64,000 nucleotides of DNA from an uncultured Chthonomonadaceae bacterium. Its GTDB lineage: Bacteria > Armatimonadota > Chthonomonadetes > Chthonomonadales > Chthonomonadaceae. Shown here piece by piece: positions 59,626-64,000 of the stretch (its first letter is position 1; each line of letters opens with the position of its first letter). The notes beneath the pieces are model-generated. The model saw only the letters and a program-made list of their open reading frames with translations. It searched no databases and was not told the DNA's origin. The DNA is taken from contig CAWFQB010000005.1 in assembly GCA_963817895.1 (NCBI GenBank), positions 672,001 through 736,000 on the forward strand, written 5' to 3'. The translations under genes and the position numbers were made by a program.

Positions 59626-59812
59626 AAAATAATACGCTATATAGCATGAATTCCGCAATAAAATGTTTAATAGATGAGGGCTATCCACTTTCGGCGGGAG
59701 ATTGCCCCGCACAATCGGGATGCTTTTTCTTCAAACCTCCTGAGCGCAAAGCGGCGTTCAGGTTTTGGGCGTTGAAAATGCCCGTGTATATAGATCACAG
59801 GAGAATCACGAC

Positions 59813-60757
59813 ATGCGCCTGCGCACTGTAGCGCCATTGCTCGCAATGGCAATGGGAATGTTCATGGAGCCTGCCCACGCTCAACTCTCGAACTTCGAAA
59901 TCACGCTTACCAATCTCACGCCCACCATCAGTTTCGACGCGACGGATACCATTAGCCCGCCCAAAGCTCCCATGTTCCGGGCGAAAAACGATTTCTCTTC
60001 GCAGGTCTTCACGCAGCCTGTTTTCGCCACGCACGACAGCAGCTATACCCTGTGGCGAGCGGGACAGGCGGCGTCTACCGGGACGCAGTCCGTTGCGGAA
60101 AACGGATTGACCAAGCAGCCCGGCAACTTCGGCAACCCGGTTTATCTGGTTGGAGATTTGGCTTCGCATCAGGCGAGTAATGGCGGCAACGGCAGCGTAT
60201 TGTCCGTCCGCGAGGTTGCCAACCCCAATTTCAATCCGTCCAATCAATGGCACAACGCGGGCGGGAATGCGCCGGGAAGTTTCACGCCGCCATTCCCGAT
60301 AATGAACTGGGTTCCCTCACAGACCAGTGTTATGTTCAACATCGCTACCGATGCGGCGCACCCGCTATTGTCCGGCGAGTTTATGCTGGTTCGCACCAAT
60401 GACGGCTTTTCCGGCCTTGACAGCATCAACCTGTTCAATTTGCCGGGCGGTTCCGAAACGTTCGACATCTATGCCTATGACGCAGGTACGGAAGTCAACA
60501 CTGAAGCGCAAAGCGATCTGGTCTTCTGGAACAGCATCCCCAGCGGCCATACCGCCGAAAACGGCGTGATTACGCTGCATCCCGGCATTCAGGGATTGAA
60601 CGGAGGCTTTCTCAGCCCCTTTGCCTGGAACACGGCCCTGCCAGTCGGACGCATCACCGTGACCGCCGTTCCCGAACCAAGCAGCATGTGCCTGTTTGTG
60701 GCGGCAGGCATGTCCACGTTCCTGCTGTCCCGCCGCCAAAAGCGCCGGGCGCGTTAA
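59813..60757 (+). CDS. Spondin_N-domain PEP-CTERM protein
   Basis: Signal peptide; P.FATH, VAENG, TNDGF.GL, AYDAGTE.N; VPEPSS + TM + RRQKRRAR. Confidence 0.85.
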   Translation: MRLRTVAPLLAMAMGMFMEPAHAQLSNFEITLTNLTPTISFDATDTISPPKAPMFRAKNDFSSQVFTQPVFATHDSSYTLWRAGQAASTGTQSVAENGLTKQPGNFGNPVYLVGDLASHQASNGGNGSVLSVREVANPNFNPSNQWHNAGGNAPGSFTPPFPIMNWVPSQTSVMFNIATDAAHPLLSGEFMLVRTNDGFSGLDSINLFNLPGGSETFDIYAYDAGTEVNTEAQSDLVFWNSIPSGHTAENGVITLHPGIQGLNGGFLSPFAWNTALPVGRITVTAVPEPSSMCLFVAAGMSTFLLSRRQKRRAR

Positions 60758-60897: not shown

Positions 60898-61872
60898 TTA
60901 TTCGCGGGAAGACCGGGGCGCGTCAGCAGGGGTGAGCGGGATGGGATGCAGCAGTCCGCGCTGAAAACTCCGCGATTCGGTGACGCGCAGGCGTTCGGGC
61001 AGAATGTAGGGGAACCGCAGCCCCTGCGACCCTTCCGCCGGATATGTGGACCCGGCGTACTGCACGGTATATTTGCGGGCCGAAGCATCCGAGCCGAACG
61101 CGATTTTGACAACCGGGGTTTTGGTCTCCGCAATGCCGTGCAGAACCGACCATTCCACAGGCCAGTTCAGCATCTCTTCCAGCCAGCCGATAACCTCCGC
61201 GTGTCCCGCGCCGCGTCCAATCGCGATATAAGCGTCCGCCTGTTCCCGCGTCGCGGCGCAGTCGAAGCGGCAGGGCAAATGCGGCACGGCGCGCGCGCCC
61301 AGCGAACGCAGCAGAACATTGCCCGGTAACGGCCCGGTAACACGCCAGGTATCGGGCGCGATTTCTTCCTTTTGGACTGTGTTCAGCGTCATGGGCCATG
61401 TAGGGTCCACAAACCGGTCGCGATACCAGATTTGCTCGAAAAACGCATGGCAGCAGGCCGGACAGCCTACCATCCGCGCCACTTCCGCCCTGTCGTCGCG
61501 CTGCCAGGCCGCCGCTAAGTCCTCCACATTTTCCAGCGCCCCCACCGCCACACGGTAACGGAGGGGAGTCGCGCCCGTATCGCGCGCCGCGTAGTGCGTT
61601 CCCCCGTCCAGGCCTTCCAGAATTCTCAGGTGCAGCCTGTGCCGCGCGCCCTGTTCGCGCAGGTGTTCCAGTTCCCCCGCATAAACCACCACCCGCATAC
61701 ACGGACGCAAGCCCTCCGCGACGGACAGCAGTTCCCATTCCTGCCAGGCGGCGATAAGACGATCCACGCGGGGCTGCCACACTTCGCGCGCCCGGTCGCT
61801 GACCCATGAAAAGCGGGTAAAGTCCGGCAGACGAAAATCAAGACGCTCCATCGTTTCTGTAAATGATTGCAT
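60898..61872 (-). CDS. Cys-rich accessory protein of the radical SAM operon (DUF483-like motifs)
   Basis: VGCPACCHAFF and HLPCRFDC; co-oriented 73 bp downstream of the rSAM gene. Confidence 0.7.
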   Translation of the reverse strand: MQSFTETMERLDFRLPDFTRFSWVSDRAREVWQPRVDRLIAAWQEWELLSVAEGLRPCMRVVVYAGELEHLREQGARHRLHLRILEGLDGGTHYAARDTGATPLRYRVAVGALENVEDLAAAWQRDDRAEVARMVGCPACCHAFFEQIWYRDRFVDPTWPMTLNTVQKEEIAPDTWRVTGPLPGNVLLRSLGARAVPHLPCRFDCAATREQADAYIAIGRGAGHAEVIGWLEEMLNWPVEWSVLHGIAETKTPVVKIAFGSDASARKYTVQYAGSTYPAEGSQGLRFPYILPERLRVTESRSFQRGLLHPIPLTPADAPRSSRE

Positions 61873-61945
61873 TTCCGCTCCCTTTCCGCCCGTCAAAAGC
61901 AAAGGCTACCGCCCGAACACCCGAATACCTGAACACCCGCATTGT

Positions 61946-63115
61946 TCAGGCTTTGACCGCAACGGCCCGCATCGCTTCCAGCGTTTCTTCCATTGTCGGG
62001 TTGCTGCCCCGGCCCCACGCTTCCAGCATGGCTCGTTCGAGGTATATCCGGTTTGGCTGCGCGGAAATCGGGAAACTTCCCCGATCCAGCAGACGCTCTT
62101 CGACGTGGCGAAACAGTTTTTTCCAGATGTCGCAGTGTTCCGTGCGGTTGCGCCAATCGCCGTCAATGGCCGTGCCGGGACACTGCCCTTTGCACACAAG
62201 AAAAAAGCGGCAATCCCTGCATCCGCCATGCGCCTGCGGCGTGTGGTACAGCGCGATGTAACGCTCGTAGCCGGAACGGGAGGCTTTGGTGAAATCTATG
62301 CCGTCCTTGTTGGTGCGCCCGCAATTGCTGCGCTGCCCGTGTCCCTCTATGCCCTGTACAGCCGCCGTCGTATAAGGGTCGCAGGCCATCCATACGCACG
62401 TCGCCTGCCGATCCTTTCCCGCCAGCAGGCGTTCCATATCGGAGAACAGGTCGAATCGCAAATGGGATAGCGACGACTCCATTTCGGCAAAATGCAGCAG
62501 CGCACCGATATTTTCCGGCGCGTTCAGCGCGTATTTGCGGCGAATGAACTCGTTTTCCACTTCCAGAATGTGCAGCCGCGCGCTCGTGATGCCCATAGCG
62601 TCACATTCGCGGAACCACGCTTCCATGCGCGGCAGTTTGTCCCCGGTGGCATTGTTGCGGTGCAGGGTCACAATCAGGCTTGGCGGTGTCCCCTCTTCGC
62701 ACAGGCGGCGAATGGCCTGATGCGTTTTCGCGCTCGCTTCCCGCGTTTTCGCCAGATTGCCGGCCCAGCGCGCATCGTTGAGTTCGTCAGGCCCGTCTAC
62801 CGAAATTCCGACGTGGACGTTGTACTTTCGGAACAGGCGGATGTGATTTTCGCTGACCAGCGTTCCGTTCGTTTGAACGGAATTGGTCCCGAACTGCTCC
62901 AGCCCCCACGCCCACAATTCTTCCAGGTCATTATCGTGAATCAGCAGCGGTTCCCCGCCGAACAGGGTAAACGCGCCGCTTTTCAATACCGCCTGCTTCA
63001 TCGCCTCCATATCATACGATTGGGTCAGATTGCCCGCGTCCCGTTGCGGATTCTGGTAGCAGTACTGACACCCGATATTACAGTTGACGCCCAATGGCCT
63101 CAGTTCAACGCCCAT
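61946..63115 (-). CDS. Radical SAM/SPASM peptide-maturase-like enzyme
   Basis: CNIGCQYC, GGEPLL, QTNG, SVDG; SPASM C-x4-C..C..CRDC-x5-C-x3-C..C; RBS GGGGAG. Confidence 0.9.
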   Translation of the reverse strand: MGVELRPLGVNCNIGCQYCYQNPQRDAGNLTQSYDMEAMKQAVLKSGAFTLFGGEPLLIHDNDLEELWAWGLEQFGTNSVQTNGTLVSENHIRLFRKYNVHVGISVDGPDELNDARWAGNLAKTREASAKTHQAIRRLCEEGTPPSLIVTLHRNNATGDKLPRMEAWFRECDAMGITSARLHILEVENEFIRRKYALNAPENIGALLHFAEMESSLSHLRFDLFSDMERLLAGKDRQATCVWMACDPYTTAAVQGIEGHGQRSNCGRTNKDGIDFTKASRSGYERYIALYHTPQAHGGCRDCRFFLVCKGQCPGTAIDGDWRNRTEHCDIWKKLFRHVEERLLDRGSFPISAQPNRIYLERAMLEAWGRGSNPTMEETLEAMRAVAVKA

Positions 63116-63351
63116 GATTGTTGCTCCCCGCGCAAAAAGGATGAAGGGTGAAGGATGAAGGATGAACAGCCTCCCATTCATCCTTCATTACTCAGCATCT
63201 CTATCAACTATCAACTATCAACTGCTTATGGACAAACCAGATAAAGATTGTACTATGGCGGGGTTCCGAGTGTTGAAAACACCCGTCTGAGTGGCGTTCC
63301 GCCAAGCGTCCTACGGACGCGGGATTGTACAATGTCCAAGTGGTTTGTCCA

Positions 63352-64000
63352 TTAGATCGCCTTCGCCGGCACATCAATATGCGGCGTCGAGGTGTCCCCG
63401 TGCGGAATGGCCGTGCCGTCCGTGTGCGGAATGGTTTTGGTGTCTATGTGCGGCAGCGTCTGCGTGTCCACATGGGGAATGATTGTGGAATCCACATGCG
63501 GCACGACCGGCGTGTCCACATGCGGGCTGATAGCCGTATCTACGTGCGGAATGATCGTGGCGTCCGTGTGCGGTGTGCCAACGTCAAAGTGCGCCCCGGG
63601 GGTGTCCCAGTGCGCGTGGGTATCTACATGCGCCTTGCCAAAGAAACTGGTGTCGTCGTGAGAGCCGGTGGAATCGGCGTGACTGCCTCTGCTGTCCGCA
63701 TGGCTGGACGCCGTATCGCCGTGTTTGGCGGCAGTATCGGCGTGTTGGGCGGCAACATCCGCATGCAATTTCTGTGGCGTATCCCCATGCTGCGAGGGCG
63801 TGTCTACGTGCTGCGGCGGCGTATCCACATGCGGCGCAGCCGGAATATCGGCGTGCTGCGAGGGCGTATCTATATGCTTGCCCGCCACATCTATATGCGG
63901 CGTCACCAGACTGCTGAACAGGGAACTGGCGTTGTCCTTGATCTGCTTCTGAACGCGGTCCGCCAGCGCGTTGATGTCGCGCGGAGACACGGACAGGGTG
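63352..64000 (-). CDS. His-x-Asp repeat protein, putative rSAM substrate/RiPP precursor (5' end outside window)
   Basis: 24 HxD motifs, mostly 7-8 aa apart; frame open to the window edge. Confidence 0.8.
   Translation of the reverse strand, partial: TLSVSPRDINALADRVQKQIKDNASSLFSSLVTPHIDVAGKHIDTPSQHADIPAAPHVDTPPQHVDTPSQHGDTPQKLHADVAAQHADTAAKHGDTASSHADSRGSHADSTGSHDDTSFFGKAHVDTHAHWDTPGAHFDVGTPHTDATIIPHVDTAISPHVDTPVVPHVDSTIIPHVDTQTLPHIDTKTIPHTDGTAIPHGDTSTPHIDVPAKAI

Follow-up and report, generated by a model that had tools for sequence, protein, structure and literature searches.

A candidate protein-modification system was found near the end of a 64,000-nucleotide stretch of DNA (the window) from an uncultured Chthonomonadaceae bacterium (assembly GCA_963817895.1, contig CAWFQB010000005.1, positions 672,001 to 736,000). 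It consists of a large carrier protein whose C-terminal tail holds 24 His-x-Asp (HxD) motifs, a radical S-adenosylmethionine (rSAM) enzyme of the SPASM type and a DUF483-like partner protein. Judged by sequence comparison, this module represents a real, widespread and uncharacterised protein-modification system, in which the enzyme and its partner very probably modify an aromatic-x-Asp motif. The module and the motif were found across bacteria, archaea and phages, on many unrelated proteins. The best explanation overall, in which we place moderate confidence, is a two-component maturase that crosslinks a portable aromatic-x-Asp tag.

The three genes of the module

The open reading frame (ORF) listing of the window placed three genes on the minus strand in the order given by a preliminary description of this DNA: the HxD-bearing frame, the rSAM gene and the gene for a 324-aa partner. 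The first of these, an open frame at 63999-63352 entering from the window edge, was assigned from the ORF, the genome context and a model of the orthologue at the most closely related locus (L002) to the 3' end of the gene for a large beta-sheet carrier (63352..64000, minus strand). Its array (63373..63897, minus strand) is a putative modification tag. Counting upheld the 24 motifs reported for the last ~180 residues: they occupy the last 181, at a spacing of 6 to 10 residues, and take up 24 of the 25 His and 24 of the 25 Asp of the tail. Across 20,000 shuffled versions of the tail, HxD motifs averaged 3.4 and never exceeded 11. When this genome was divided into 21-kb tiles, 4 of 349 contained at least 4 HxD per 60 aa and 2 contained at least 5; just one exceeded 5, at 9, which is the density expected for the window locus. 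A six-frame scan of the 7.5-Mb genome ranked the array as densest by far, with 14 motifs per 100 aa versus 6 for the runner-up. Comparison with the tail of the L002 orthologue detected changes in 0 of 48 H/D residues versus 23 of 133 other residues (Fisher P = 7e-4), with silent changes in 12 of the 48 H/D codons. Selection keeps the H and D of the motif at the protein level. An origin of the array as a simple DNA tandem repeat was rejected on the basis of this codon-level comparison and of the degeneracy of the DNA repeats (64-90% matches).

The upstream sequence yielded the full carrier gene of about 4.85 kb, which starts at G000:C5:740196 (G000 being this assembly), about 4.2 kb beyond the window. 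No protease or transporter was recognised when translations of the flanking ORFs were inspected by eye. The orthologue in L002 is intact, with 1,615 aa. Single-base indels at two sites upstream of the window, near C5:738489 and near 737899, split the alignment of the carrier to it into three pieces, which match at 82-89%. Other genes of the same assembly break likewise against L002; hence, assembly error is a plausible cause of the indels. At these positions the one DNA run lacked either depth or a bridging contig, and no RNA run was listed. In the model of L002 residues 480-1615, long antiparallel beta-meanders were predicted with a predicted local distance difference test score (pLDDT) of mostly 70-90, falling to about 50 or less where the HxD tail begins, so that the tail is predicted to be disordered. 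No signal peptide was seen by eye, and the carrier had no matches in Pfam, NCBIfam, PHROG or PADLOC; the nearest Atlas clusters are unnamed, DUF6603 appearing only at 0.80. Fold matches to ApoB100 (root mean square deviation [rmsd] 35) and porins (Z 11-12, rmsd 15-17) were generic beta-sheet similarities and were not counted as homology. Only 10 of 48 carrier homologues have a dense HxD stretch, which identifies the tail as an add-on. The earlier choice between a heavily modified polypeptide and many related cores was narrowed by these results: many released cores do not fit the tail of a ~1,600-aa protein. A perfect 12/12 sigma-70 consensus with an extended -10 element (L001:10337-10365, minus strand; L001 being the window locus) precedes the carrier start by about 140 bases.

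The rSAM enzyme (389 aa; 61946..63115, minus strand) begins straight with CxxxCxxC at residues 12-19, without the N-terminal recognition element (RRE) of RiPP systems (RiPPs being peptides made by the ribosome and then altered post-translationally), and scored 55.6 bits against PF04055 (cut-off, 29.5). In agreement with the original description of a CxxxCxxC motif plus SPASM-type cysteines, C12, C16 and C19 and eight C-terminal cysteines (240, 245, 265, 299, 302, 308, 312 and 328) were invariant in 136 sequences. The Pfam SPASM model gave no match to the enzyme, and its C-terminal cysteine pattern aligned weakly to aux II of the anaerobic sulfatase-maturating enzyme (anSME). The top NCBIfam scores were for DynA (77.5 bits), anSME (75.9), AmcB (67.3) and YhhB (59.1). 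Membership of the XyeB, GrrM or FxsB families did not hold, scores against the cut-offs for the enzymes that form three-residue cyclophanes (3-CyFE) being 40.8/450 bits for XyeB, 51.6/310 for GrrM/OscB, 35.1/370 for FxsB, 59.1/445 for YhhB and 67.3/425 for AmcB. As all the named NCBIfam scores were far under cut-off, the enzyme falls in an unnamed family. This family numbers 2,615 proteins at E values up to 1e-30, a count that may include neighbouring families, and is represented by a single copy in this genome. PADLOC gave only generic viperin rSAM matches.

The partner (60898..61872, minus strand) has the 324 aa first ascribed to it, but with six cysteines, four of them invariant, it is better termed a Cys-motif protein than a Cys-rich one. 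Its invariant set comprises G136-x-P-x-C140-C141, H198, C201, C205 and H245. The window partner did not match Pfam DUF483 (PF04467; gathering score, 25), for which relatives scored 17-28 bits and 2 of 15 passed; the nearest Atlas clusters (score, 0.94-0.96) carry DUF483 on 13-20% of their members. No NCBIfam match was detected. A confident model (pLDDT, 91) gave no Foldseek match at E values up to 0.001 in the PDB or BFVD. Two further candidates were rejected: the best VIA match, 2guk (Z 6.5, rmsd 3.4, 104 residues), was within the range of common arrangements, and the PDB sequence matches of the partner alignment arose solely from its methyltransferase part. The window partner is without this methyltransferase domain, which many relatives carry. 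The family contains 1,163 clusters at 50% identity (E up to 1e-30; the profile also spans the methyltransferase part) and is patchily distributed, occurring in 6 of the 60 related genomes that were searched. Fusions include rSAM-partner-methyltransferase (P0245 and P0303), PqqD-partner-methyltransferase (P0247) and, in some relatives, a partner joined to DUF364.

Co-occurrence of the module and grammar of the motif

A forward survey covered all 77 GTDB and 49 viral loci returned and the best 80 of 404 metagenome matches; the viral loci came from an alignment search, the single-protein search of viral contigs having returned none. An ORF other than the rSAM gene itself with a dense array, defined as 5 or more HxD per 60 aa, was present beside the rSAM gene at 58/77 GTDB, 43/49 viral and 51/80 metagenome loci. 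Among well-flanked loci (at least 1.5 kb upstream and at least 3.5 kb downstream), the corresponding figures were 48/64, 33/34 and 21/22. The partner was found at 76/77, 45/49 and 74/80 loci, and the proposal that enzyme, partner and HxD motifs travel together was thereby borne out. Of the 19 remaining GTDB loci, where no dense array was seen, 13 had short peptides of 1-4 HxD and 3 had YDD arrays, a sorting done by eye without a chance control and in which L067, with one motif, is a weak case. Some motif was found at 74 of the 77 GTDB loci. Examples of the short peptides are leaders ending in VVHIDI, IIHIDT or HADVHVDIG beside a TIGR03975 methyltransferase, a YydG-like rSAM and an aKG-HExxH enzyme, and RiPP enzymes lie near several of these loci (TIGR03975 and aKG-HExxH above cut-off, YydG-like below, and PqqD). 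Genes of the aKG-HExxH, HprK-like and DUF364 types recur near the loci. Only one well-flanked viral locus was an exception: L120, whose array is of the H-x-N type and which encodes two rSAMs. An HxD tail on the rSAM itself was observed at 38 of the 49 viral and 13 of the 77 GTDB loci.

The reverse test started from a five-motif DNA pattern, found at 123 or more viral loci; long flanks were available for 80, and at 102 the pattern fell within an ORF of 30 aa or more. Among the matches listed, an rSAM was detected at 20 of the 31 loci whose HxD motifs were diverse and numbered at least 10 (three of these being weak, on cut ends), at 1 of 19 low-diversity loci (at least 10 motifs) and at 0 of 52 loci with fewer than 10.

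Counts from 137 distinct arrays pointed to an aromatic-x-Asp grammar, mostly His-x-Asp, consistent with the Omega-X-X-like motif that had been suggested. Asp was present at the +2 position of Tyr in 58/228 cases (25%), of Phe in 67/348 (19%) and of Trp in 17/92 (18%). For Asn, Gln, Arg, Leu, Pro and Asp, the remaining residues whose codons lie one base away from those of His, the rate was 1.5-5%, with 9/443 for Asn, 9/444 for Gln, 13/246 for Arg, 11/482 for Leu and 22/1490 for Pro. Tyr, Phe and Trp thus preceded Asp about tenfold more often than other non-His residues. Of 3578 His, only 6 were in H-x-E and 9 in H-x-S. This is the grammar expected of an aromatic acceptor and an Asp C-beta radical site, and a plain set of metal ligands would fit it poorly.

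The arrays reach up to 93 motifs on large proteins and virion fibres, and in 129 of 152 the last motif is 20 residues or fewer from the stop. Carriers elsewhere include lectin-domain proteins in Myxococcota, an FAD-binding protein with an N-terminal array and, by pattern, twin-Arg leader proteins (22/58). The NHLP-like leaders and Tat (twin-Arg) signals are putative assignments made from known motifs. Phage carriers comprise a central tail-fibre J homologue and Cumys_13, while an archaeal plasmid has its carrier gene placed behind baseplate genes. Cultured carriers are the Thermus phages Cumys, phiMa and phiLo, Paenibacillus tarimensis, Cohnella faecalis and Marinicella sediminis (L072). A rapidly built tree of 122 enzymes separated the viral from the cellular sequences (support, 86); on it, the large-carrier label required 5 changes, 2 of them forced by strongly supported branches. 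The diversity of the carriers and the changes of label on the tree indicated that the motif, and not the carrier, is the constant element.

Proposed crosslinking and competing explanations

In the explanation that we prefer, the rSAM/SPASM enzyme and the DUF483-like partner would form a two-component maturase reading a short aromatic-x-Asp motif in any unstructured stretch, the substrate here being the C-terminal tail, with its 24 motifs, of the large beta-sheet carrier. The modification is probably, on the analogy of characterised enzymes, a His-to-Asp(C-beta) crosslink. A 5'-deoxyadenosyl radical would take hydrogen from the Asp C-beta, and the resulting Asp radical would add to the imidazole two residues upstream, either at C2, as in HaaB and HtkB, or at N, as in dynobactin; an auxiliary cluster would receive the electron, with a change of -2 Da per motif. 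The partner may be a metal-binding substrate-delivery or tailoring subunit standing in for an RRE, although this is a weaker suggestion, as is the view that the product would be a stiffened, protease-resistant, imidazole- and carboxylate-lined extension of the intact protein and not a set of released peptides. As the role of the tail, we favour that it would stiffen and protect a terminal extension that is exposed, with metal or surface binding as a possible further role.

The step from motif to ring is taken by analogy with YxdB, HaaB, HtkB, DynA and PapB. YxdB makes an Asp C-beta to Tyr C3 link and HaaB an Ala C-beta to His C2 link, PapB acts at Asp C-beta, and DynA joins His N-tau to a C-beta two residues off in a C-N link (PMC11002830); HtkB links His C2 to Lys C-beta (PMC11499958). 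The triceptide synthases (3-CyFE: HaaB, HtkB, YhhB, YxdB, ChlB, OscB/GrrM and XyeB) share with the window enzyme an RRE-less rSAM/SPASM layout and an aromatic-x-x motif. Their adjacent aromatic1-X2-X3 substrate has its counterpart in the 24 HxD motifs and the Tyr/Phe/Trp enrichment, and both His at position 1 (HaaB, HtkB and YhhB) and Asp at position 3 (YxdB and OscB) are known (PMC11002830, PMC11499958). A His-to-Asp link is not among the triceptide links in the accessible passages of those two papers. The short leader-core precursor of triceptides is found at a minority of related loci, whereas here the motifs end a ~1,600-aa protein, and the near-constant DUF483-like partner also sets this system apart. 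DynA (NF041298), the top profile with a cut-off of 450 bits, differs in having a single short core and in taking its C-beta from Tyr and not Asp (PMC11002830). QhpD and PapB resemble the proposed system in rSAM abstraction at Asp C-beta and in several links per chain, the QhpD substrate being a protein subunit (PMC11002830); however, they make thioethers from Cys, which is absent from the window array.

Maturation of a His-x-Ser repeat protein by rSAMs has been demonstrated in the HXS antiphage system, which is similar in combining a His-x-X repeat protein, rSAMs and an accessory protein with modification before export (PMC13128918). HXS (HxsA-D) differs in its His-x-Ser motif, five basic repeats, two rSAMs plus HxsD and modification of one motif (PMC13128918). 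The paired rSAMs and His-x-Ser motifs of HXS contrast with the one family rSAM of this genome and the few H-x-S in the arrays, and HxsB and HxsC are absent from the 25 best NCBIfam profiles of the window enzyme. Unlike the basic HXS repeats, the HxD arrays are acidic, which makes DNA binding unlikely, and their carriers are heterogeneous and often phage encoded.

The description of the system as new was only partly sustained. The rSAM module of Cumys and phiMa, two Thermus phages, belongs to the same family (rSAM 52% identical over 98%, DUF483 partner, same gene order), and its three genes are already in print (PMC11437467; bioRxiv 10.1101/2024.08.14.607894) under another hypothesis, DNA modification, the third protein being called unknown and the repeats going unmentioned in the accessible text. 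That third protein, Cumys_13, has 54 HxD motifs and is encoded in a baseplate/tail-fibre block. The window copy differs in being chromosomal and in having a carrier unrelated to the phage protein. The accessible passages of PMC11437467 report no experiment on the module, and those of a graspetide survey (PMC8939145) mention neither HxD nor DUF483. A search that covered subscription journals thinly found no publication tying HxD or His-Xaa-Asp repeats to this rSAM. The supplements of the Thermus-phage and cyclophane-synthase papers may list these loci. The cyclophane-synthase survey by Sugiyama 2022 (JACS) could include this cluster.

Several observations weigh against the crosslinking explanation. 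For every member of the family the chemistry is drawn from analogy; scores against crosslinking families were at most 77.5 bits with cut-offs of 310-450, and anSME was about equally close, so that family membership cannot fix the reaction. The frequent methyltransferase fusion exceeds the needs of a bare crosslink. The carrier is frameshifted in this assembly; a recent pseudogene is rather unlikely. Motif-free loci accounted for 3 of the 77 GTDB loci (a 3-kb contig, one cut upstream and one with a partial rSAM). Among the matches listed in the reverse test, 11 of the 31 diverse arrays were without an rSAM in the DNA obtained (six with less than 1.2 kb of DNA, one an apparent off-frame repeat and four of one collagen-like family), and the loci of this test are partly on the same contigs as the forward viral set. 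The count of H-to-D pairs is circular because the arrays were chosen by that very motif, and P values are overstated because the arrays are related. Finally, the HXS precedent is a change of +8 Da on one motif plus cleavage, and not -2 Da per repeat (PMC13128918).

This precedent is also the starting point of the strongest competing explanation, in which the HxD substrate is the same and the chemistry is another: an HXS-type change (net carbon addition with hydrogen loss, by the fused methyltransferase), Asp decarboxylation or desaturation, epimerisation or coupled backbone cleavage. In HxsA, SHRSS is the site of the +8 Da gain (+C, -4H), and the protein is also cleaved (PMC13128918). The class I methyltransferase is fused to the partner at 80/121 genome and viral loci (39/76 GTDB and 41/45 viral partners), and the partner's own invariant Cys/His set and the recurrence of aKG-HExxH, HprK-like and DUF364 genes nearby would also suit such a reaction. 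However, the methyltransferase is missing from 29 of 76 GTDB loci, including the closest relative, L002; the core reaction therefore does not need it. Moreover, His interchanges with Tyr, Phe and Trp at position 1, as coupling of an aromatic residue to C-beta predicts. We consider this alternative unlikely, although it is the most serious one.

His and Asp are typical metal ligands, and the array could be an unmodified metal- or mineral-binding segment, with the rSAM and partner acting elsewhere or loading metal. This would agree with the DUF364/DUF4213 'putative heavy-metal chelation' domains fused to or beside some partners and with the HxD tails of the rSAMs themselves. Ligand binding would not account for the near absence of Glu in place of Asp (6/3578) while Phe, Trp and Tyr replace His, for Asn in place of Asp in some phage arrays or for RiPP-like precursors ending in a single HxD. 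An unmodified array is hence quite improbable, although a modified one might possibly bind metal.

The DNA modification put forward for Cumys and phiMa draws on homologues near cyanobacterial deazapurine genes (PMC11437467). It is highly improbable given the 54 HxD motifs of Cumys_13 within a baseplate/tail-fibre block and the lack of Que/Dpd in the recurrent neighbour families scanned at 157 genome and metagenome loci (about one-quarter of the listed families profiled, the rest assessed by eye); the accessible text of the paper does not contain 'histidine' or 'His'. An ordinary anaerobic sulfatase maturase with an incidental HxD neighbour, the alternative raised at the outset, is largely refuted: anSME is the best solved-structure sequence match (E 1e-17; ChlB is third, at 3.6e-12) and the second NCBIfam profile, but strong similarity is confined to the N-terminal rSAM core, TIGR03942 scored 75.9 bits against a cut-off of 349, no sulfatase was seen in the neighbour families scanned and the motif is present at 74/77 loci.

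A bolder form of the crosslinking explanation, offered tentatively, is that His-x-Asp is a leader-independent, portable stapling tag and that one enzyme pair, acting processively, turns the floppy tail into a rigid poly-cyclophane rod by forming dozens of His-Asp rings. Cells would tag large beta-sheet proteins and exported lipoproteins, phages would tag tail fibres and tips, and some RiPP clusters would use a single copy. RiPP chemistry would then be a general protein-materials modification in bacteria, archaea and viruses. If crosslinking itself is correct, an unnamed, very widespread rSAM family would gain a substrate and a reaction, DUF483 would gain a role, and a testable model of protein modification would supersede the published DNA-modification guess. 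The reach of cyclophane-type chemistry would grow beyond small peptides to include large proteins of cells and virions, and enzymatic multi-stapling would have a short tag that can be repeated.

Array variants and neighbouring features

RiPP-like clusters were observed at L057:6419-13665, L058:6010-10001, L063:4671-7953, L064:5632-9947 and L072:12589-15974. Their precursors, in up to three copies, have 73-90 aa with a hydrophobic core and a terminal H-I/V-D, and their enzymes are a YydG-like rSAM, a TIGR03975 B12 methyltransferase and the family rSAM with its partner, to which L057 adds aKG-HExxH. A second type of cluster, at L009:8762-9079, L018:2670-2993, and L034 and L036:8942-9238, encodes 84-94-aa precursors in which HxD flanks an alternating (V/I)-D core. 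Beside them lie genes for a TP_methylase-domain protein of ~970 aa and a partner-DUF364 fusion, together with a 2OG-oxygenase-like gene; this type occurs in Pseudoalteromonas rubra. YDD replaces HxD in arrays at L066:144-1079, L075:9344-9976 and L071:1565-5560, and the enzymes of L066, L067 and L075 form a supported clade (98). Phage arrays with H-x-N or a mix of H-x-N and H-x-D were found at L120:9941-15542 and L342:2732-3502, L120 having two partner-like genes in addition to its two rSAMs.

Cyanobacterial-type carriers (L005:4326-9893, P0402-P0410) have HxD inside a LamG-like domain and at the C terminus, and those at L015:9113-9877 and L020:7353-7937 have an N-terminal domain, an FSRR leader and then an HxD tail. 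The N-terminal domain of the latter two is putatively KilA-N-like. In Thermus phage phiLo (L129:8001-10513), an rSAM with its own 9-motif tail is accompanied by a partner; no separate HxD gene was seen in the two downstream genes translated, and transposase remnants lie upstream. A collagen-like viral protein at L159:5818-6921 (also L191, L215 and L218) carries a tail of 12-13 HxD motifs, with no rSAM to be found within 6 kb. On one of these four contigs (G064), a full module is located about 51 kb away, which suggests that it acts on the collagen-like tail in trans; the other three are 15-41% complete.

Within the window, a sigma-70-like site (TGGACA-16-TACAAT; a 10/12 match to the consensus only) is present at 63324..63351 on the minus strand (L001 5351-5324), directly past the carrier stop and upstream of the rSAM gene. 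Two short heptamer repeats, AAGGATG x4.3 and CTATCAA x3.3, occupy 63137-63223 between the carrier and the rSAM gene. A Spondin-domain PEP-CTERM protein with no apparent link to the module is encoded at 59765-60757 on the plus strand, convergent with the partner gene.

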